DNA from: a virus
Lineage: Duplodnaviria; Heunggongvirae; Uroviricota; Caudoviricetes
DNA length: 9,118 nt
Strand: one strand, 5' to 3'
Virus record (IMG/VR): IMGVR_UViG_3300012155_000040
Shown here: in pieces, positions 1-9,118 of the stretch
Layout of the letters: each line of letters begins with the position of its first letter
Numbering within the stretch: position 1 is the first letter of the stretch
Position numbers and translations under genes: made by a program
The notes under the pieces: generated by a model
Database searches by the model: none
What the model was told of the DNA's origin: nothing
Seen by the model: the letters and a program-made list of their open reading frames with translations, nothing else

Positions 1-305
1 GTATACATGGCATTATCCGAAATGCTCCACTCCCTGCAGACAACCCGGACAGTCCTGTTGTATTTTGGCGGACGCCACAAAAAAGCACGTATCCCGGCAT
101 GACGGGATAAAAAACTGTCCAGCGCAGCACGGGAATATTCATCTGTGACACGAAACACCGGTTTAAACGTTTTCAGATCCGCATTCAGACCACCAGCCCG
201 TCGCTGTTCATATCCGTCACCAAACTTTACCGTAATAACTGATGGCTTTCGTGTCGTCTCCATCCCCTCACGGGGGATCCAGTTAAAAACTTCAGGCTCA
301 GGCAC
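1..305 (-). CDS. Minor tail protein, lambda gpM-like (partial; last ~10 codons lie beyond the window start)
   Basis: Manual minus-strand translation from 305 gives (V/M)PEPEVFNWIPREGMETTRKPSVITVKFGDGYEQRRAGGLNADLKTFKPVFRVTDEYSRAALDSFLSRHAGIRAFLWRPPKYNRTVRVVCREWSISDNAMY with no stop before position 1. The motifs FxW..P..GM, V(K/R)FGDGY, GLNA(D/N)LKT and FLW.PP match my recollection of lambda gpM. The gene follows the tape measure gene as in lambda (H then M). Start is uncertain: GTG at 305 has GGAGG 8 nt upstream; in-frame ATG at 320 and 263 are alternatives. It is absent from the ORF track because its stop is outside the window. Confidence 0.8.
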   Translation of the reverse strand, partial: MPEPEVFNWIPREGMETTRKPSVITVKFGDGYEQRRAGGLNADLKTFKPVFRVTDEYSRAALDSFLSRHAGIRAFLWRPPKYNRTVRVVCREWSISDNAMY

Positions 306-3300
306 TGTACAATCCTCCATCCCGACGCGATGACTGCATAATTGACACAACCCTGCTGTCGATCAGATCCACCAGTCCCCTGGCTGAGCGCGCATCTGTC
401 TCGCCATTGCTCCCTTGATTCTGAATGCTGATGTGATACACGGGAGAATAAACAAATCCACCGCCACCATTCACATTGCCAATGGCTCTGACTCCAAGAG
501 AGCCGTCCGCTGCCCGTGTCAGTGGCATGATGGCTTCAGGCCCGGCCTCGCCCATCAGCCCGGCACCTTTCGTAAAAGCAAAATACGTCGGTGTATCCAC
601 AATAGTGTTACTGTAAGCACTCAGATTTGCCGATGTGTAAACACCACCTTTTGCGTTTGCCACCGCCCCCGAAATCCATCCGCCGACCGTACCAAGCCAC
701 CCTCCGGCACCGGAGAGTGACTTCAGTCCGTTAACAATGGCCGCATTCATCAGAATTTTTGAAACTTCCCGGAGAACTGAGCTACCCCAGTTCCTCCAGT
801 CCACAACATTTCCGGCCAGTGCATCGGAAATATTTGATACCAGCCCGTCCATCGTGGAAACGACAGCATCTGCCGCCTGTGAAGCATAATCGGTGGCACT
901 GTCTGCCCAGTTGGTCAGTCCCTCCTGGAGTCCGGCATTCCAGTTATTACGTAAAGCATCGGCCTTTGCATAATAATCCTGCTGATCGCTGAGACGCTCT
1001 TCCAGATATTTTTTATTCAGTTCTTTCTCCTGTTTCCACAGGGCTTCTTCAATTTCTCCGGCCTGATACTGTCTCAGCAGCTCGTTATTTTTCTGCTCAA
1101 ACGTCTGCCGGATACTCCACATTTCCTGGAGTCGTTCACGCATCCGTGAGCCTTCACCATATCCCAGCAACTGCGCGTCGTCAGATGCCCGGGCACTGGC
1201 ATTACTGTCCGCCAGACTGCTTTCATACGCGGCAAGCTGCTCACGAATCTTTTTCTGGTCGATGAGTGCCGCATTCTGTAAAAGCGTTTTTTTCTGCGCT
1301 TCTGAAAGGGTTGATAATTCGCCCTGACTGACCTGATATTTCATCTTAGCCAGTTCAGTATTCTGCCCTGCCAGTGCTATCTGCTCTTTCTGCTGTTTAA
1401 TCAGCCGTTTATAAATATCTTCTGTTTTTTCCGCTTCGGTCTTTTTATGCGCTTTGGGTTTATTTGCCTGGTTATTTCGCCAGGCATCCAGTGAGTTATT
1501 GATATAATTCTGTCTGGCTGTCTGATACGCCTCTCCCACAAAGCCGAGATCATCCGCAGCATAACCCAGGCGGGCACGCTCACGGGCTTCCCCCTTCAGG
1601 CGGGACAGAGCCAGTTCGCGCTCGCTGTTATTCAGTGCAGTCTGCTGTTTATCATCCAGGGTTGCCTGTGGTAGCCGTAACGGTACATTCACCAGCCCCT
1701 GTCGCTGCTGAAGTAATTCATTACCGAGCCCGAGAAGGCGATTAAACTCGGTATGCTGCCCATTCATGATCAACAGGGACTGATACGCTTTGTTTTGTTC
1801 CGCGGCCTGTTGACGGATCAACGCCACCCGTCGTTCCTCCAGCCCGGCAAGCACATCCTGAATGGATTGCGCTTTGCCCTGCATTTGAGTGAGGCGAGAC
1901 TGTTCAACTGCCAGTTGATTTGTTGCTTCGGCAAGCCCTTCTGTGACAGTTTTTACCGACGTCATGTGGTTAATCATAAAACCGTTATCGGTTGTCCAGC
2001 CCGGGTTTGCCAGCACGTACTGATAGCCAGCAATTTTTTCCTGTAAGGATTTAATCTTACTTTTCTGCTCGTCAATTAACCTGTTTTGCTCATCAAGTGC
2101 CTGCCGCGTCTTTTCCTCATTATCTGACGCTTCAGGAAGCGACATTGCCGACGTTTTCTGGCGAATTTCGTCGATTGTTGCGGCATACTGGCGTGCAGAT
2201 TCTCTGGCCTGCTCCTGATTCTGATACATCGTGTACCAGGCCGTCGCCCCCAGCATGACGAGTCCCGGCACACCACCAACCAACCCCAGCGCACCACTTA
2301 ACAGACGACTCCCCACTGACGTGACAGTATTCAGCGTTGTCTGTGCCGCTGTTCTGGCCGCAATATTACGGGTAAGTGACGCCTGGGCAGCAGCCAGTTT
2401 CGCTTCTGCGGCTGCCTGCCTTTCGGTACCGCGAGCAGCAACAACCGCTTGTTGCGCACGATAAACCGCCGCACGCGCCCTGGCTGTTGCTATCTGTGTC
2501 CCCCGGAGCTGCGCTTCCGCAAGAGCCACTTCGTTTCTGGCTGCAGTAATTAATCCGGCAGTTGCAGATCCAGCAGAAGACGCCATATTGCCAAAATATC
2601 GGGCTACCCCGACGGCAACCAGAGCACCGGCAGCGGTTGCCACAGTGTCAATATTGCCTGCAATACCATTCAGCACACCGGAGAGCGTCTTCGTCACTCC
2701 GCTTGCCTCGTTCGCACCACCAACCCAGGCCATAAAGGCGTTTTCAACTTTGGTTGCAGAGGATGAAACCGTATCAGGCATTGCCGCATATTCATCACGT
2801 AATGCCCCAAGCTGACTAATCAGTGCAGGAACAACCTTATCGGCGGTCAGTTTTCCGTTATCCGCCATGGCCTTCAGATCCTTACGGGCAACCCCCATTC
2901 CCGCAGCCAGCGCACGAATAACACGATCGCCGTTCTCATTCACCGAGTTAAACTCTTCACCGCGCAGCACTCCCTGCGCCAGTGCCTGACTGAACTGCGT
3001 GATCACCGAACTGGCTTCTGCTTTACTGGCACCGGATAATTTCAGGCCCGTGGAGATCGCCTCGGTGACTTTCAGTACCTCCTCAGAACTGTAACCATAC
3101 TCCCGCATGGAAGCTGCAGAACGGGCAAAAAGGCTGGCGTTATCAGAAAACGCCGTCCCCGTTCTCTGGCTGATCGCCATTAATTCACGTTGTGATACCT
3201 GAAAATCATCACTGGACTGTGAGGCCTGCTTCAGACGGGCATTTACTGAATTCCACTCATCGGCGAGAGAAATAAGATGACCGGTAGCAAAAGCCCCGGC

Positions 3301-3531
3301 AAATGCCCCCGCCATATTCAGTGCCGAAGATTTAGCTGTATTTATCTGATCCGTCACTTCTGCCAGTGCACGCCGCATTTCACGGGAGGCAGCAGCAGAC
3401 TGTTGGCCTCCGTTCTGCATGGTGCGGTAGTAATCCTGCCCCATACGCGAAGCCCGGGAGATCTCTGACTGGAATGACCGGGAGTTTGCCGAGATTTTAA
3501 TAATCAGTTCACGTAATGTCGCCACACTCAT
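298..3531 (-). CDS. Tail tape measure protein, lambda gpH family (1077 aa)
   Basis: Very long ORF placed between the chaperone genes and the gpM-like gene. It has a central hydrophobic Gly/Ala-rich segment (LLSGALGLVGGVPGLVMLGATAWYTMY), long Ala/Gln/Arg/Glu-rich predicted coiled-coil stretches, and a C-terminus (FTKGAGLMGEAGPEAIMPL ... RRDGGLYSA) resembling the lambda gpH C-terminus (... MRDGGLFSGGGR, from memory). ATG at 3531 has GGAG only 1-2 nt upstream; GTG at 3525 (residue 3) has better SD spacing, so the true start may be 3525. Confidence 0.9.
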   Translation of the reverse strand: MSVATLRELIIKISANSRSFQSEISRASRMGQDYYRTMQNGGQQSAAASREMRRALAEVTDQINTAKSSALNMAGAFAGAFATGHLISLADEWNSVNARLKQASQSSDDFQVSQRELMAISQRTGTAFSDNASLFARSAASMREYGYSSEEVLKVTEAISTGLKLSGASKAEASSVITQFSQALAQGVLRGEEFNSVNENGDRVIRALAAGMGVARKDLKAMADNGKLTADKVVPALISQLGALRDEYAAMPDTVSSSATKVENAFMAWVGGANEASGVTKTLSGVLNGIAGNIDTVATAAGALVAVGVARYFGNMASSAGSATAGLITAARNEVALAEAQLRGTQIATARARAAVYRAQQAVVAARGTERQAAAEAKLAAAQASLTRNIAARTAAQTTLNTVTSVGSRLLSGALGLVGGVPGLVMLGATAWYTMYQNQEQARESARQYAATIDEIRQKTSAMSLPEASDNEEKTRQALDEQNRLIDEQKSKIKSLQEKIAGYQYVLANPGWTTDNGFMINHMTSVKTVTEGLAEATNQLAVEQSRLTQMQGKAQSIQDVLAGLEERRVALIRQQAAEQNKAYQSLLIMNGQHTEFNRLLGLGNELLQQRQGLVNVPLRLPQATLDDKQQTALNNSERELALSRLKGEARERARLGYAADDLGFVGEAYQTARQNYINNSLDAWRNNQANKPKAHKKTEAEKTEDIYKRLIKQQKEQIALAGQNTELAKMKYQVSQGELSTLSEAQKKTLLQNAALIDQKKIREQLAAYESSLADSNASARASDDAQLLGYGEGSRMRERLQEMWSIRQTFEQKNNELLRQYQAGEIEEALWKQEKELNKKYLEERLSDQQDYYAKADALRNNWNAGLQEGLTNWADSATDYASQAADAVVSTMDGLVSNISDALAGNVVDWRNWGSSVLREVSKILMNAAIVNGLKSLSGAGGWLGTVGGWISGAVANAKGGVYTSANLSAYSNTIVDTPTYFAFTKGAGLMGEAGPEAIMPLTRAADGSLGVRAIGNVNGGGGFVYSPVYHISIQNQGSNGETDARSARGLVDLIDSRVVSIMQSSRRDGGLYSA

Positions 3532-3541
3532 TCTCCGGACG

Positions 3542-3566
3542 AAAAAAAACCGCCGAAGCGGTTTTT
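3542..3566 (-). terminator. Intrinsic terminator downstream of the moron gene (looks bidirectional)
   Basis: Minus-strand transcript reads CCGC-UUCG-GCGG (GC stem with UUCG tetraloop, plus hairpin at 3550-3561) followed by eight U (plus A-run 3542-3549). On the plus strand the same hairpin is followed by TTTTT (3562-3566). It lies 8 nt after the moron stop (3574) and just upstream of the tape measure start (3531). Confidence 0.65.
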
Positions 3567-3573
3567 GTATTCT

Positions 3574-3915
3574 TTAAAGAAGTCCGGCCTTACGCCTTGC
3601 TTCCTGAAGATATTCATCATCCGTTTTTTGTGAAACGGAACTATCTGCATTGCAAATTAAATCACTACCGCAATGCTTACATTTAATAGCCTCTTCTTTG
3701 ATCAACTCCGCACAGTAAGGGCATTTCTTCATGCCATTGCTTACCATTTGTTGTTCATGTGCCTTCTCATCTCTTTGGATTACTAGCGAATGAACCAGAG
3801 CAACAATAAAGATCATCGCACCATATACCCACCATCCTAAAAATGAGCGACCTTTGCTTTTCGCAATAATAGCTGGAATTAGTCCCAAAACTATTGAAAT
3901 AAGTAAAAATTCCAT
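3574..3915 (-). CDS. Moron: small membrane protein with C-terminal zinc ribbon (two predicted TM helices plus CxxC-x10-CxxC); candidate superinfection-exclusion or defence protein
   Basis: ORF of about 113 aa from ATG 3915 (the track's 3918 start is a TTG one codon upstream). AAGGA lies 7 nt upstream of the ATG. Hydrophobic segments [16 protein letters not shown] and [22 protein letters not shown] are separated by KSKGRS. C-terminal motif is [24 protein letters not shown]. Hand-counted GC in sample 60-nt blocks is about 33-42% versus about 52% in flanking genes. Followed by a strong intrinsic terminator. Inserted between the G-T chaperone and tape measure genes. Confidence 0.65.
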
Positions 3916-3934
3916 CAATGTTTCCTTACTTTCT

Positions 3935-3963
3935 CAATAAAATGGGAATAATAATCCAGTCAA
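3935..3963 (-). promoter_or_regulatory. Candidate sigma70-like promoter for the moron (weak -10)
   Basis: Minus-strand TTGACT (plus 3958-3963) followed after 16-17 nt by TTTATT/TTATTG (plus about 3935-3941), in the 57-nt AT-rich spacer between the G-T stop (3973) and the moron start. The -35 is a good match; the -10 is poor. Pattern inspection only. Confidence 0.2.
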
Positions 3964-3972
3964 GTGAAAAGA

Positions 3973-4661
3973 TCATCGAGCTGCAACAAATAATGCCTTC
4001 TCAATCTCAGCAAATGGATCTGAGGTGCCTTCTGTCTGCTCCTGATCCCACTGAAGAAGCGCATCATTCAGTGGCACTTTGACCCCCTGCGCACCGTAAA
4101 CAGCTGAAACAATCTGGGCAGCCCGGATATCAGCCCGTTCGTCCCCCAGCGGGCTGAACCTGTCAAATTCTGCCCACATCATGATTTCTGATGCGGACAT
4201 TTCCCGGCGTAACTCTGACAATGTGCGCCCCATCCTGAGTGCCAGCATCATCAGAAAACGCATCCCCGGAAGCGCTACTTTTTTTTAACCTCGCCGGCAT
4301 CACTGATCAGTTCCAGAGACTGCCGAAGAAGCCGCGCATGCACCGGGCCATACACGGCAATCACCTGTTCACGATCATCCTCTGAAAATACAGGTTGCAG
4401 TCCGGTATCACACAGAACATCAATGAACAGTTCAACATCTGCCTCCAGATTTCGGCGGGCGCGCTCCGCAACGGATAACGGTGTCTCATCATCTTTTGCT
4501 TTAACGATCTCCTGCCAGCGCAACCAGGCTTCTGCAGAAGGTTCCCGTAATACAACCGTTGCTCCTTCCCATTCAGGCACATCAACAGTTTTATGGCGAA
4601 ACCCCGACATCGTTGCCAGTGCCAGATTACGGATATCTTTAGTCATCACACCCATCCTCAT
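3973..4661 (-). CDS. Tail assembly chaperone G-T fusion made by programmed -1 ribosomal frameshift (lambda gpGT analogue)
   Basis: The upstream ORF (4275-4661) ends GTT AAA AAA AAG TAG. The heptamer A AAA AAG (minus strand, plus coords 4278-4284) sits immediately before the stop. A -1 slip reads AAA AAA GTA GCG CTT CCG GGG ATG CGT TTT ..., running without a stop into the 3973-4263 ORF (MRFLMMLALRMGR...). That ORF is in the -1 frame relative to G and has no convincing SD of its own. The position between major tail and tape measure genes matches the conserved G/GT arrangement. Confidence 0.8.
4275..4646 (-). CDS. Tail assembly chaperone (gpG analogue; zero-frame product)
   Basis: ORF directly downstream of the major tail gene, ending at the slippery site. 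Three in-frame ATGs (4661, 4655, 4646); the third has GAGGA about 8 nt upstream, while the first overlaps the major tail stop (TAATG) and could be translationally coupled. Acidic small protein, consistent with a chaperone. Confidence 0.75.
   Translation of the reverse strand: MTKDIRNLALATMSGFRHKTVDVPEWEGATVVLREPSAEAWLRWQEIVKAKDDETPLSVAERARRNLEADVELFIDVLCDTGLQPVFSEDDREQVIAVYGPVHARLLRQSLELISDAGEVKKK
4278..4284 (-). promoter_or_regulatory. Slippery heptamer A AAA AAG for -1 programmed frameshift
   Basis: Plus-strand cttttttt at 4278-4284 is AAAAAAG on the minus strand in X XXY YYZ register relative to the G reading frame, ending 0 nt before the G stop codon TAG (4275-4277). Confidence 0.75.
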
Positions 4662-5365
4662 TAACTGACGGTTACAGTGCAGGAAGTGGAGGTCACTTTG
4701 TTAACCGGGCTTGCTGAATCAGAAATCTCGCAGGTATATGCGCCCGCATCACCGGATACTGCCGATGCCTTACTGAACGTTGCCGCCGTCTGTCCGGCAA
4801 CAGGAGAACTACCTTTCTTCCAGACATAAGAATAAGGCGGCACACCACCGGCAGCCTCAACCACCATTTCGAGTTTCGCTCCGGCAGAAACCTGCAGCGT
4901 GCTGTTTAAATCGACCTTCACTTTCAGCGGCTCTGTCGCCAGCACAGGTTTACCTTTCAGGCGCAGGGAAAACGTTGCAGCCACAACACCATTGGTTCCT
5001 GCAGACCAGGTATGCTGACGCACCTCTGCCATAAAGGTAAATCCGTTTCCTGACGGAAAAATAACTTTAAAGCCATACGTGGTGTCATTGTCATAGGCAC
5101 TGCGCAACGCGTTCTGGGCAGCATTGAGGTAAAAGTTGCCTGACATGGAAATCTCTGACGCGGCACCAAGACCGTTAATATTTTCCTGCTCAACAGAACA
5201 CAGCGTGGTGACATCAATATCCTGCTTTTGTCCTGCGGTAAACTGCACCTCTTTGATTGTACAGCTCAGGCCAAGATAGCTGGCAGAATCCAGGGTTTCT
5301 GCTGTTACCGGTGCAGACGAAATCATAATTTTCGTCAGTTGCGAACGCTCAAAATTAGAGGACAT
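4661..5365 (-). CDS. Major tail (tube) protein with C-terminal Ig-like domain
   Basis: 234-aa ORF upstream of the chaperone pair, with AGGAG 6 nt before the ATG. The C-terminal ~85 residues (GGVPPYSYVWKKGSSPVAGQ...AGAYTCEISD...CTVTVS) have the Y-x-C pattern typical of Ig-like decoration domains on siphophage tail tubes. Confidence 0.8.
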   Translation of the reverse strand: MSSNFERSQLTKIMISSAPVTAETLDSASYLGLSCTIKEVQFTAGQKQDIDVTTLCSVEQENINGLGAASEISMSGNFYLNAAQNALRSAYDNDTTYGFKVIFPSGNGFTFMAEVRQHTWSAGTNGVVAATFSLRLKGKPVLATEPLKVKVDLNSTLQVSAGAKLEMVVEAAGGVPPYSYVWKKGSSPVAGQTAATFSKASAVSGDAGAYTCEISDSASPVNKVTSTSCTVTVS

Positions 5366-6889: not shown

Positions 6890-6933
6890 CCCGCAACACT
6901 GTGCGGGCATAAAAAAACCGCATTACGCCGCGG
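6890..6933 (-). terminator. Terminator-like / attenuator structures after the major capsid gene
   Basis: On the minus transcript: a short hairpin CCGC-(8 nt)-GCGG (plus 6918-6933, overlapping the capsid stop codon) followed by U7 (plus A-run 6911-6917), then a second 6-bp hairpin CCCGCA-CAGUGU-UGCGGG (plus 6890-6907) immediately before the connector SD CAGGAG (plus 6884-6889). Confidence 0.35.
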
Positions 6934-8149
6934 CTTTCTGGCGGACCGCAGCGCCGATCTTCATCAGCTTAATCGCCTGAGAATCCACCAGCATACCGCC
7001 GGTTCGTTTGGTGGTATAAAAGCCCACAAACGGTTTGTTGGTGTACGGATCGCGCAGGATACGGGTGCCGATACGATCAACGATGGTATAGCCGCGTTTG
7101 AAGTTACCAAACGCAATGGCTTTTGCATCGGCGGCAATATCCGGCATCTGCTCATTTTCAACGATGCCATACCCTGCCAGAGAAGAAGGCTGACCCAGCT
7201 CAATGCCCGGACGCCACAGATAATTTCCGTCGTTATCCTTCAGCAGACGAATGGCAAACAGGCTGCTGTTGTTCATCATAAACTTCGCGCCGCTGCGGTG
7301 CGCCTTGCGCAGGGTGTAAATCAGTTTAATGATCGCATCAGCGGTCACGCCAGAAGCCGCACCGGAAGCAATGTGCTGAAGTTTGCCAAACGCACGGGTC
7401 TTGTCATCTTCATCAGTGGACTCATAAGCCAGAAAACCTTTTGGTTTTTTGCTGCCGTCGCCACTGGTAAAGGCAATTTCTTCCTGTTCGGCAAATTCCA
7501 GCGCCAGCTCACTGTTGATCCAGTCTTCCACATTGAAGAAAGCATCATCGAGCATTTTCTGGGTAGCCTGCGGGTTGCCGTAGATTTCCCCCATAAAGGG
7601 TTCAATCAGCCCCAGTTTTGAGGTGGCGGTTTCCGGACGCGTATCCGTTTCCCCCACCCATCCGGACTTAGTGCCGCCCAGATTCACCAGTTTTTTATAA
7701 TCCGAGCCACCGAGGGTGATCACAGTGGCTTCCTGGCGCATCACCACCTCATCTTTCAGCAGCGTCAGGATGGTACGATCCAGTTCTTCCGGAATGGCAT
7801 AACCACCATCTTCATCATTACCTACCTGAAGCGCCTTACGTTCAAGTTCACGCAGACCGTCTTCACGCCCCTTGCGCATAAATCCGATAAACGCTTCTTT
7901 GTGTTCACCGGCAACTTTATTTTGCGTGCCGCCTGCCGGACGCTTGATGTCTGCCAGCTCTTTTTCCAAGTCGCTTTTCAGGTTCTCCAGCTCGCTGATT
8001 TGCCCGTTCAGGCTTTCCACCTGTTCGGCCAGCTTGCTTTTTTCCTGTTCGATCGCGTCAATGCGCTTGTCGTTTTTTGCCTTAAAATCGTCAAACTTCT
8101 GCTGCAAATCCTGCGCGACCTGTTCAACGTCTTTAATATCAACAGCCAT
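6923..8149 (-). CDS. Major capsid protein, HK97 fold, with N-terminal delta (scaffolding) domain
   Basis: 408-aa ORF after the prohead protease gene, with AGGAG SD. The N-terminal ~100 residues are strongly coiled-coil-like (DLQQKFDDFKAKNDKRIDAIEQEKSKLAEQVESLNGQISELENLKSDLEKELADIK), typical of an HK97 delta domain. There is no separate scaffold gene between protease and capsid genes. Confidence 0.9.
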   Translation of the reverse strand: MAVDIKDVEQVAQDLQQKFDDFKAKNDKRIDAIEQEKSKLAEQVESLNGQISELENLKSDLEKELADIKRPAGGTQNKVAGEHKEAFIGFMRKGREDGLRELERKALQVGNDEDGGYAIPEELDRTILTLLKDEVVMRQEATVITLGGSDYKKLVNLGGTKSGWVGETDTRPETATSKLGLIEPFMGEIYGNPQATQKMLDDAFFNVEDWINSELALEFAEQEEIAFTSGDGSKKPKGFLAYESTDEDDKTRAFGKLQHIASGAASGVTADAIIKLIYTLRKAHRSGAKFMMNNSSLFAIRLLKDNDGNYLWRPGIELGQPSSLAGYGIVENEQMPDIAADAKAIAFGNFKRGYTIVDRIGTRILRDPYTNKPFVGFYTTKRTGGMLVDSQAIKLMKIGAAVRQKAAA

Positions 8150-8162
8150 TATTTACTCCTGG

Positions 8163-8813
8163 TTAAAATTTAAGATTTTTCAGTGCATTCAGTGCGGCAT
8201 CCACATCCTCAGCATCACGCAGGGATAAAGCGCCGTATCCCCCGTCCATGAATGCTTTGGCCTGGGTTCGCGAAAGTCCAACATCGCGCAGGACCCGCTC
8301 AATGATTTTCTGCTCAGGGATCTCCCCACGCGCCAGCGCATTTTTCACATCGCTGATGCGAGCCTCATCATTGGAAGGAAACGTCACCAGACTGACCTCC
8401 CACAGGTCGATCTCTTTCAGCAGGAATACCCCTTTTTCACGGTCGTACTCCCAGTCTTTCAGGATATAGCCAACAGAAAGGCCGGTTAAAGAACCGGCCT
8501 TCATATGAGCATGTGCACGTTTTGCCAGGGGATCATCATCAACGAGTAATCGCCCCCTGACATAAAGCCCGACATCATCTTCTTTCATTTCGGTGTACAC
8601 GCCGATGGGCTCATCCATGCGGTGCTGCCAGAGCAACGCAGGCAGCGCCTTTTTTTCGCTCCATTTCTGGAGTGTTGTGGTAAAGGCACCGGGGACCACC
8701 ACATCATCGTGGCTGTCCTTAACACCAAAAACAGAGCCGTAACCTTCAAACTCACCAGAATCACTGACGGATTTCAGGTTCAGCGGTATATCAAGACGCT
8801 GTTTTGTCTGCAT
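8163..8813 (-). CDS. Prohead maturation protease, HK97 family (S78-like)
   Basis: Contains GYGSVFGVKDSHDDVVVPGAF, which resembles the conserved N-terminal core of HK97-family prohead proteases as I recall it. Lies between the portal and capsid genes. Preferred start is ATG 8813 (AAGGAG 7 nt upstream); the track start ATG 8843 has no SD and lies deeper in the portal gene. Confidence 0.85.
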   Translation of the reverse strand: MQTKQRLDIPLNLKSVSDSGEFEGYGSVFGVKDSHDDVVVPGAFTTTLQKWSEKKALPALLWQHRMDEPIGVYTEMKEDDVGLYVRGRLLVDDDPLAKRAHAHMKAGSLTGLSVGYILKDWEYDREKGVFLLKEIDLWEVSLVTFPSNDEARISDVKNALARGEIPEQKIIERVLRDVGLSRTQAKAFMDGGYGALSLRDAEDVDAALNALKNLKF

Positions 8814-9118
8814 CTCCACTCTCCTTTTTCTTACCGTTGTCATCGCCAGCAGAGGGACTGGTGGTCATGTTCATCGGTGTCAGATACACATCACCGCCCG
8901 GTCGGGGATTCATATCCTCCAGATCACGGCAGTCATTAGGGGAATAAATCCCCCAGTTGATCCCCGTGGCATACGCTTCAAAGCGGGATTTCATGTCGCC
9001 ACGCAACAATGCTCCGGCATTAAATTTGGCGTAAAACTTCCCCTGCTTGCTCTCCCTGACCAGCCCTGTATTGATCCGCTGCTCAATACGGGTCAGATAC
9101 GGCACAAGGGAATAGTTA
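8791..9118 (-). CDS. Portal protein, C-terminal part (N-terminus lies beyond the window end)
   Basis: The reading frame is open to the window edge (the track's 9105 start is only the first in-window GTG). The acidic Gly/Lys-rich C-terminal tail and the position immediately upstream of the protease gene fit an HK97-type portal. Assignment is mainly by synteny. Confidence 0.65.
   Translation of the reverse strand, partial: NYSLVPYLTRIEQRINTGLVRESKQGKFYAKFNAGALLRGDMKSRFEAYATGINWGIYSPNDCRDLEDMNPRPGGDVYLTPMNMTTSPSAGDDNGKKKESGDADKTAS

Follow-up and report, generated by a model that had tools for sequence, protein, structure and literature searches.

Which function might be expected of a small gene that sits in the tail region of a prophage directly ahead of the tape measure gene, is missing from most prophages with the same tail module, and encodes a membrane-anchored protein with a predicted zinc ribbon? 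This question is raised by an open reading frame (ORF) at positions 3574..3915 on the minus strand of the virus record IMGVR_UViG_3300012155_000040. The whole stretch of 9,118 nucleotides that was analyzed, referred to as the window, carries an HK97-like late operon of an Escherichia coli prophage. The best-supported reading of this moron ORF is that of a prophage-borne inner-membrane protein for superinfection exclusion, which would act at the step of genome entry; it draws on analogy with known systems and is held tentatively, with a probability of about 0.45. A sequence-only reading of the window had already proposed superinfection exclusion. This proposal was strengthened by proteins in which the same ribbon is fused to the Imm_superinfect hairpin (PF14373), by one such gene between gene T and the tape measure protein (TMP) gene of a Pseudomonas phage and another in a cI operon, and by a preprint on the interaction of T4 Imm with its TMP, but exclusion is still something that we infer.

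Architecture, family and membrane topology

The ORF and the four regions of its product, in amino acids (aa), are as follows.

3574..3915, minus strand: moron ORF, 113 aa, with the start codon ATG at 3915-3913 and the stop codon TAA at 3576-3574
3778..3915, minus strand: hydrophobic hairpin, aa 1-46, defined by invariant columns, AF2 helices and a hairpin-only search
3733..3777, minus strand: charged linker, aa 47-61, with a short helix at aa 50-59; poorly conserved, with the highest dN of the four regions
3658..3732, minus strand: predicted zinc ribbon (PF13248), aa 62-86, with four invariant Cys residues plus E70 and A76
3577..3657, minus strand: variable tail, aa 87-113, with the non-conserved C89 and an acidic C-terminal helix at aa 99-109

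By its sequence, the product is a small membrane-anchored protein with a predicted zinc ribbon. The hairpin is composed of a first hydrophobic segment (aa 3-18, G11 and P14 invariant), the basic loop K19-S-K-G-R-S24 and a second hydrophobic segment (aa 25-46; F25, W28, W29, Y31, G32 and H42 invariant), which agrees with the two hydrophobic helices and the KSKGRS loop described previously. The CPYC-x10-CKHC ribbon noticed at the same time was also recovered, as C65-P-Y-C68, ten residues and C79-K-H-C82, with a match of aa 62-86 to Pfam Zn_ribbon_3 (PF13248; E = 1.1e-8) at 34.7 bits, above the gathering cut-off of 27. All 64 family members compared (64/64) contain a Zn_ribbon_3 match, and C65, C68, C79 and C82 are invariant in alignments of 51 and of 64 sequences. 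A fifth Cys had been pointed out as well; it is present at position 89 but not conserved, so that no significance should be attached to it. The 19 positions invariant in the 64 aligned members include G11, P14, A18, K21, G22, F25, W28, W29, Y31, G32, A39 and H42 in addition to the Cys residues of the ribbon. The tail from aa 87 to 113 is common to the alleles located between T and the TMP gene, and is substituted by other tails or domains elsewhere.

The moron ORF is a real gene under purifying selection. Its ratio of nonsynonymous to synonymous substitution rates (dN/dS) was 0.08 to 0.15 in comparison to four diverged alleles, and the ribbon was the most constrained region, with a dN of about 0 to 0.03. 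An AF2 model with a pLDDT of 74 contained helices at aa 2-20, 25-45, 50-59 and 99-109 plus the ribbon, the two helices of the hairpin (aa 2-20 and 25-45) having pLDDT values of 81 to 87.

The sequence-only reading had not recognized a named family, which can no longer be maintained: aa 1-111 of the protein match positions 1-108 of the 110 positions of the profile PHROG 8436 with an E value of 2e-50, and RefSeq also names the protein, labeling it in E. coli genomes as "zinc ribbon domain-containing protein." The PHROG entry is annotated as unknown function, so that membership in this family of Enterobacterales prophages gives the protein a name but no explanation. Homologues occur in 1,623 clusters at 90% identity, and a search with the hairpin only yielded 1,926 representatives of clusters at 50% identity. 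Against NCBIfam, the protein gave nothing significant, just weak noise at the level of the ribbon, and no structural PHROG or Pfam family resembled it. When the AF2 model was used for structure searches, BFVD returned only unnamed "zinc-ribbon containing" phage proteins, and the Protein Data Bank (PDB) only generic zinc knuckles of 25 residues (RanBP2/NZF, L32-like) with non-significant E values; a sequence-profile search of PDB had a best E value of 0.15. The family is uncharacterized and its hairpin is without a Pfam model. The combination of a hairpin with a cytoplasmic ribbon was not described in the literature searched, including that on PF14373, and nothing on such an architecture was found for the Fc02 exclusion genes or in a review on superinfection exclusion. 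Small membrane proteins from morons that block phage entry are, as such, already a known kind.

Hairpins of this KGRSF type also occur as tandem repeats within larger proteins (P0241, P0243, P0281 and P0328), among them a 497-aa protein with an N-terminal XRE helix-turn-helix and a 620-aa protein with pentapeptide repeats. Because of these tandem repeats inside larger proteins, the hairpin is a mobile membrane module that is used beyond phage morons.

The AF2 model cannot decide the membrane topology, which we infer from fusion architectures and from charge bias. A periplasmic Cys-rich domain had been considered on the basis of the basic loop alone; both lines of evidence place the ribbon on the other side of the membrane, so that it is almost certainly cytoplasmic and not periplasmic. 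The protein P0226 contains a GYF_2 domain, the ribbon, an extra transmembrane (TM) segment and an Imm hairpin; P0186 likewise has this ribbon ahead of an additional TM segment. In both, the ribbon resides in a long N-terminal region and should be cytoplasmic because this region has no signal peptide; the extra TM segment is predicted to bring the Imm helix back to N-out. A third hydrophobic segment follows the ribbon in 22 homologues, in most cases serving as a C-terminal tail anchor or else lying ahead of a Pro/Thr-rich linker and a domain with Cys. In these proteins, the number of Lys plus Arg residues (K+R) averaged 1.73 in the 12 residues before this segment and 0.36 after it. Three of the four tandem-hairpin proteins possess exactly one extra TM segment per repeat, namely P0241 with its N-terminal XRE helix-turn-helix, P0243 with a Lys-rich linker between the repeats, and P0328. 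This extra segment per repeat is consistent with a hairpin unit that has its two ends on opposite sides of the membrane. Throughout the family, the loop contains 2.29 K+R in 6 residues and the flank after the hairpin 2.92 K+R in 15 residues. The most parsimonious topology would thus have the N terminus outside, the basic loop inside, the second segment re-entrant, and the ribbon and C-terminal tail in the cytoplasm; for the hairpin, this agrees with what has been reported for T4 Imm. Both basic clusters then obey the positive-inside rule and the zinc domain is placed into the reducing compartment, and such a location would be compatible with zinc binding by the ribbon.

Relatives, their contexts and known exclusion proteins

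The link to proteins with an Imm domain comes from Pseudomonas phage YMC11/02/R656. Its protein gp065 was matched by the window protein in a BLASTP comparison over the hairpin and the ribbon (E = 5e-15). As a positive control, gp065 was recognized by Pfam Imm_superinfect (PF14373) with an E value of 1.6e-18 and 66.8 bits, followed by the same ribbon, and its gene is located between those for the tail chaperones and the TMP, as is the window ORF. The CxxC...CxxC ribbon was present in 111 of the 120 best homologues of gp065 and is fused to the PF14373 hairpin in hundreds of proteins. By these comparisons, an Imm hairpin plus ribbon is a recurrent architecture and represents a sister branch of the window family. 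The ribbon of this branch, CPYCAExIKxxAIKC(K/R)xCGxD, is nearly identical to that of the window protein, and its members, for instance gp065, are labeled "superinfection immunity protein" by NCBI; the literature searched contained no phenotype for any of them.

In an hhalign comparison with the ribbon removed, the window and PF14373 hairpins aligned in register with a score of 24.4 (P about 1.5e-4). A null of column-shuffled alignments had a score of 10.4 +/- 2.4, none of the 200 shuffles reaching 24.4, and a reversed alignment scored 8.4; circular-shift controls were uninformative, the local alignment surviving the shift. The elements in register are (I/L)PAxIA, the basic loop and a W-rich motif, with a deletion of 10 residues in the window family. 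The window hairpin is likely to be distantly related to that of PF14373, with a similarity that exceeds composition and a homology that is unproven.

T4 Imm and other PF14373 proteins resemble the window protein in being small inner-membrane proteins with a hydrophobic helix that ends in (I/L)PAxIA, a basic loop and a W-rich segment. The window hairpin differs from theirs in being about 10 residues shorter and in passing from the basic loop to the W motif without the intervening helix. T4 Imm itself contains no ribbon, comes from a virulent myovirus and is made early in infection. It has been reported to bind the T4 TMP directly, to have its N terminus facing the periplasm, and to depend on R33 and W50 as residues important for exclusion (bioRxiv 10.64898/2026.03.06.709160). 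Of these, R33 falls into the basic loop, LMRGSKS, and W50 into the W-rich NWSIIGW motif of T4 Imm.

The genomic positions of the relatives were counted for the best 80 relatives on viral contigs and, separately, for a diverse sample of 80 loci encoding Imm plus ribbon. Each of the former (80/80) is followed directly by a TMP gene, at a median distance of 47 nucleotides (nt). The order T, moron gene, TMP gene was found at all listed homologous places in E. coli and Cronobacter and in Salmonella phage FSL SP-016. In the diverse sample, a TMP gene comes directly after 13 of the 80 loci and is reached within about 1 kb downstream of 8 others; the TMP-proximal loci belong to about eight lineages, and the expectation for a random gene at this position is about 1 in 60. 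The TMP detector for the distant set had been seeded from five TMPs, so that the 49 of 80 loci in which no TMP was found are an upper bound on its true absence. Distant relatives in the same slot occur in Pseudomonas phages YMC11/02/R656 and D14C and, with a different membrane anchor, in Klebsiella phage ST846-OXA48phi9.2. In a Microcystis phage, the gene is flanked by putative chaperone and TMP genes, which are unannotated and were identified by position and size, and it runs on the opposite strand.

Two extra ORFs occupy the slot between chaperone and TMP genes in Pseudomonas phage vB_PaeS-D14C (BK061477.1, 3512-4276). The first has an internal start, MRKILVASIVLTAVLSGCASSG, that resembles a lipoprotein signal with a lipobox. 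The second, at 3965-4276, is an unannotated ORF for a 103-aa hairpin-plus-ribbon protein; the record has, in its place, a small ORF annotated on the other strand.

Other members use other positions. The slot between K and I of lambda-type tail modules is occupied in Hafnia, Atlantibacter and Pseudomonas aeruginosa. This second recurrent insertion slot, between K (NlpC/P60-JAB) and I/J, was seen at loci L021-L023, L195-L196 and L199-L201, and the Hafnia and Atlantibacter copies carry an additional C-terminal domain of ~85 aa without a Pfam match. A relative in P. veronii lies in the operon of a cI-like repressor, downstream of the repressor, and one in Sphingomonas at the edge of a prophage, beside a two-component system. 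Pantoea relatives are found at non-phage chromosomal sites, near MFS/LysR genes and a Tae4 effector. In Pantoea allii (GCA_030057265.1, 3501-3893), a member with three TM segments (P0120) is ~1.7 kb away from the gene for the Tae4 type VI amidase effector, and Tae4 is followed on its own strand by a small ORF. Judged from these loci, the association of the family is a general one, with moron or lysogeny-expressed positions, among which those near the TMP gene are strongly preferred, and a functional tie to the TMP is unproven. The adjacency to the TMP gene emphasized by the sequence-only reading is thus borne out by the 80 best viral relatives and, at the same time, weakened as functional evidence by the other slots.

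Among known exclusion proteins, HK97 gp15 occupies exactly the same slot, from T to the TMP gene with a terminator after it, which is a positional analogy only. Like the window protein, it is a small inner-membrane protein of a low-GC moron, and it is both the archetypal moron product and a proven inner-membrane exclusion protein; whether entry is blocked depends on the incoming phage's tail region (PMC3594210). HK97 gp15 differs in having 62 aa, one TM segment, no Cys and no ribbon. A comparison to gp15 had been suggested by the sequence-only reading; it revealed no relation in sequence, and homology to HK97 gp15/YebO was rejected (BLASTP E = 0.3 over 11 residues). Membership in the Tab or Tai systems, TMP-directed defences of prophages that act on tail assembly, was also rejected: these are at different loci, and zinc or transmembrane features appear in neither paper. 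Tab of JBD26 is encoded between the terminase genes, is unlike known proteins in sequence and blocks tail assembly, not entry, and Tai genes are mostly upstream of the packaging module.

Moron status, cassette and late operon

The classification of the gene as a moron was upheld by its GC content and by empty sites in close relatives. The GC content is 0.38 at 3601-4050 and 0.50 to 0.56 (about 0.52) in the flanks. Eleven E. coli phage records contain flanks that are 97 to 98% identical, with a matched stretch of 500 bp in comparison to 901 bp. At such empty sites, which are present in the eleven phages and in most of 902 E. coli genomes, T is followed directly by a terminator and the TMP gene. 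The features that surround the ORF are listed below.

~3567..4007, minus strand: inserted or replaced cassette, about 441 bp compared to about 45 bp in vB_EcoS-611R1 (alignment)
3916..3972, minus strand: AT-rich gap of 57 nt from the T stop to the moron start
3963-3958 and 3941-3936, minus strand: sub-threshold candidate promoter, TTGACT, 16 nt, TTTATT; absent from the scan report
3927-3922, minus strand: Shine-Dalgarno sequence AAGGAA, a good match, before the moron ATG
3542..3566, minus strand: intrinsic terminator AAAAACCGC-UUCG-GCGGUUUUU plus a U8 run, dG -14.2 kcal/mol, z -2.4

The cassette extends from ~11 codons before the T stop through the intergenic region and the ORF, and ends just before the hairpin of the terminator, which is located 7 nt past the moron stop and 10 nt ahead of the TMP start. 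An in-frame TTG is present at 3918, one codon 5' of the ATG. The candidate promoter is partly kept in an allele of 84% identity (TTTACT-17-TTTATT), not in more distant alleles.

A survey of 5,426 complete E. coli genomes, with a cassette counted when at least 80% of the query was covered, identified the flanks in 902 genomes and the cassette in just 44 of these, so that about 95% of the E. coli prophages with this tail module are without the moron gene. The 44 include near-identical alleles, an intact allele of 84% identity (L033) and a decayed allele (L034). The latter, unannotated and of 90.6% nucleotide identity, has acquired R23C and a 1-nt frameshift around codon 46 and has lost its first CxxC through a deletion of 6 nt; it is also present in strain JNEC-KY180. 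The last ~11 to 20 codons of T (window positions 3973-4007 and the equivalents in L033 and L034) differ between the cassette-bearing alleles and the empty-site phages. Because of this difference in the 3' codons, the recombination junction is placed inside T, each cassette carrying its own T C terminus. The ORF is a horizontally acquired moron, dispensable, mobile, and selected where it is intact.

The late operon around the moron ORF, all on the minus strand, is composed of the following features in the order of transcription.

8163..8843, minus strand: late operon protease
6923..8149, minus strand: capsid
after the capsid in transcription order, minus strand: head-tail connectors
4661..5365, minus strand: major tail protein with Ig domain
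4275..4661, minus strand: chaperone G (PF06222)
3973..4263, minus strand: tail assembly protein T (PF06223), made by a -1 frameshift from G at A AAA AAG
298..3531, minus strand: HK97-type TMP, 1,077 aa (PF06120, PF20155, PF09718; phrog_339)

The operon continues from T via the moron ORF, which has the same orientation, to the TMP gene 42 nt downstream; the gene is indeed beside that of the tape measure, as had been stated. At the G/T frameshift site (window positions 4275-4292, minus strand), G ends with GAG GTT AAA AAA AAG TAG, and a slip on A AAA AAG enters the T frame (KKVALPGMRFLMML...), which is canonical, as in lambda and HK97. The true start of the TMP may be the in-frame GTG at 3525, two codons downstream of the ATG at 3531, because a GGAG is just 1 nt upstream of this ATG and at the normal spacing of 7 nt from the GTG.

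Proposed superinfection exclusion and its alternatives

For the exclusion reading, the following mechanism can be proposed. The conserved hydrophobic hairpin would embed in the inner membrane and interfere with the channel that an incoming phage builds there from its tape measure or ejection proteins. The ribbon may serve as a cytoplasmic accessory module, either for oligomerization or for capture of a partner or of DNA.

Several results weigh against this reading. The window protein had no match to PF14373 at an E value of 1 or below (gathering score 27.9 bits), the 25 Pfam families with the most matches in 64 relatives (E value of 0.1 or below) did not include PF14373, and the hhalign probability of the hairpin match to PF14373 was just 49 to 55%. 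The result on T4 Imm and its TMP comes from a preprint and was obtained with a myovirus (bioRxiv 10.64898/2026.03.06.709160). Adjacency to the TMP gene may reflect a hot-spot of recombination, because members also use the slot between K and I, prophage edges and non-phage sites. The tandem-hairpin protein P0281 departs from the proposed topology. PADLOC-DB 2.0 gave no significant match to any component of a defence system, the best matches being to a homing endonuclease (E = 0.0012) and LmuB (E = 0.0067), both short and over the ribbon region, and the literature searched contained no experimental phenotype for any family member. The L034 allele (E. coli 2014C-3075, NZ_CP027447.1 1369718-1371211, locus ~430-860) is a decayed pseudogene. 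The terminator belongs to the slot and not to the cassette, because the empty-site phage vB_EcoS-611R1 also has it. Finally, a scan for consensus sigma-70 promoters reported none in the 57-nt gap upstream of the ORF, so that expression in the lysogen is unproven.

Two alternatives are unlikely to a similar extent. In the first, the protein would act in abortive infection (Abi) or as another membrane-perturbing defence: the ribbon would sense a phage product or DNA after entry, the hairpin would oligomerize and depolarize the membrane, and the infected cell would be killed or arrested. This possibility would suit a single gene, in a moron position of a prophage, that combines a TM module with a soluble domain resembling a sensor. 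It would also suit the ribbon, the most constrained region and cytoplasmic, which could meet phage components only after injection, and the resemblance, not significant, of the ribbon fold to small protein-binding zinc knuckles. No PADLOC model was matched, however, the hydrophobic segments are just two and short, the cassette contains no partner gene, and the T4 Imm domain of the sister branch is reported to block entry via TMP binding, not to kill (bioRxiv 10.64898/2026.03.06.709160).

In the second, the product would be a lysogenic-conversion factor unrelated to phage defence, for instance in envelope or stress physiology or in metal handling, that travels as cargo in moron hot-spots. The non-phage copies in Pantoea near MFS/LysR genes and Tae4, the prophage-edge copy of Sphingomonas by a two-component system, fusion of the hairpin to unrelated domains such as the XRE helix-turn-helix and pentapeptide repeats, and the breadth of the family with its 1,926 representatives at 50% identity all point in this direction. 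Most copies examined, on the other hand, reside inside phage tail or immunity modules, no metabolic or regulatory neighbor is conserved, and the architecture parallels that of the Imm_superinfect proteins.

A role in the lytic cycle of the phage itself is still less probable. The protein would then provide self-immunity to the phage's own pore-forming TMP, in the manner of a colicin immunity protein, or aid in TMP handling. The position inside the late operon in the same orientation, 42 nt from the TMP gene and with no convincing promoter of its own, would be expected in this case, and unrelated phages repeatedly have such a gene next to that for the TMP, among them the Microcystis phage with its opposite-strand case. 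Such a function is difficult to reconcile with the absence of the gene from near-identical phages and from about 95% of the E. coli prophages with this tail module, with an allele that is a pseudogene, with relatives far from any TMP gene, and with the intrinsic terminator that separates the moron ORF from the TMP gene.

A virion structural or tail-assembly component, which the position in the tail cluster between T and the TMP gene might suggest, is highly improbable: this reading is disfavored because deposited phages with 97 to 98% identical flanking tail genes are without the gene, and the protein is predicted to be membrane embedded, resembles no structural PHROG or Pfam family and finds only uncharacterized zinc-ribbon proteins in structure searches. 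The sequence-only reading had named clear homology to a virion structural or assembly protein as contrary to its own proposal, and no relation to virion structural proteins is detectable.

Superinfection exclusion at genome entry is retained as the best-supported reading. The reality of the gene, its moron status, its architecture and the distribution of the family, with its recurrence at moron or lysogeny-expressed positions, are established, and topology, expression in the lysogen, exclusion phenotype and target are predicted. By analogy, an extension to all proteins with a hairpin and a cytoplasmic ribbon, of the KGRSF or the Imm type, can be formulated, although it is doubtful: they may represent one widespread and previously unrecognized class of entry-blocking immunity proteins of temperate siphophages, in which the intramembrane hairpin would neutralize the pore-forming segment of the TMP, as reported for T4 Imm, and the ribbon would contribute on the cytoplasmic side, for instance by capture of the emerging TMP tip or of the DNA end, or by oligomerization. 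The placement next to the TMP gene would then be a pairing of immunity protein and pore-former like that in colicin-immunity modules.

The predicted function itself should not surprise phage biologists, and if the prediction fails, the gene is an ordinary uncharacterized moron. Genes of this kind influence which lysogens therapeutic phages can infect. If the prediction holds, thousands of prophage genes for a "zinc ribbon domain-containing protein" would become recognizable as superinfection-exclusion genes, and a compact two-module protein, with a membrane part and a ribbon that are genetically separable, would be available for studying how the genome-entry channel is blocked. The paradigm of T4 Imm, with a TMP that is neutralized at the inner membrane, would then extend from virulent myoviruses to temperate siphoviruses, those of Enterobacterales, Pseudomonas and beyond.

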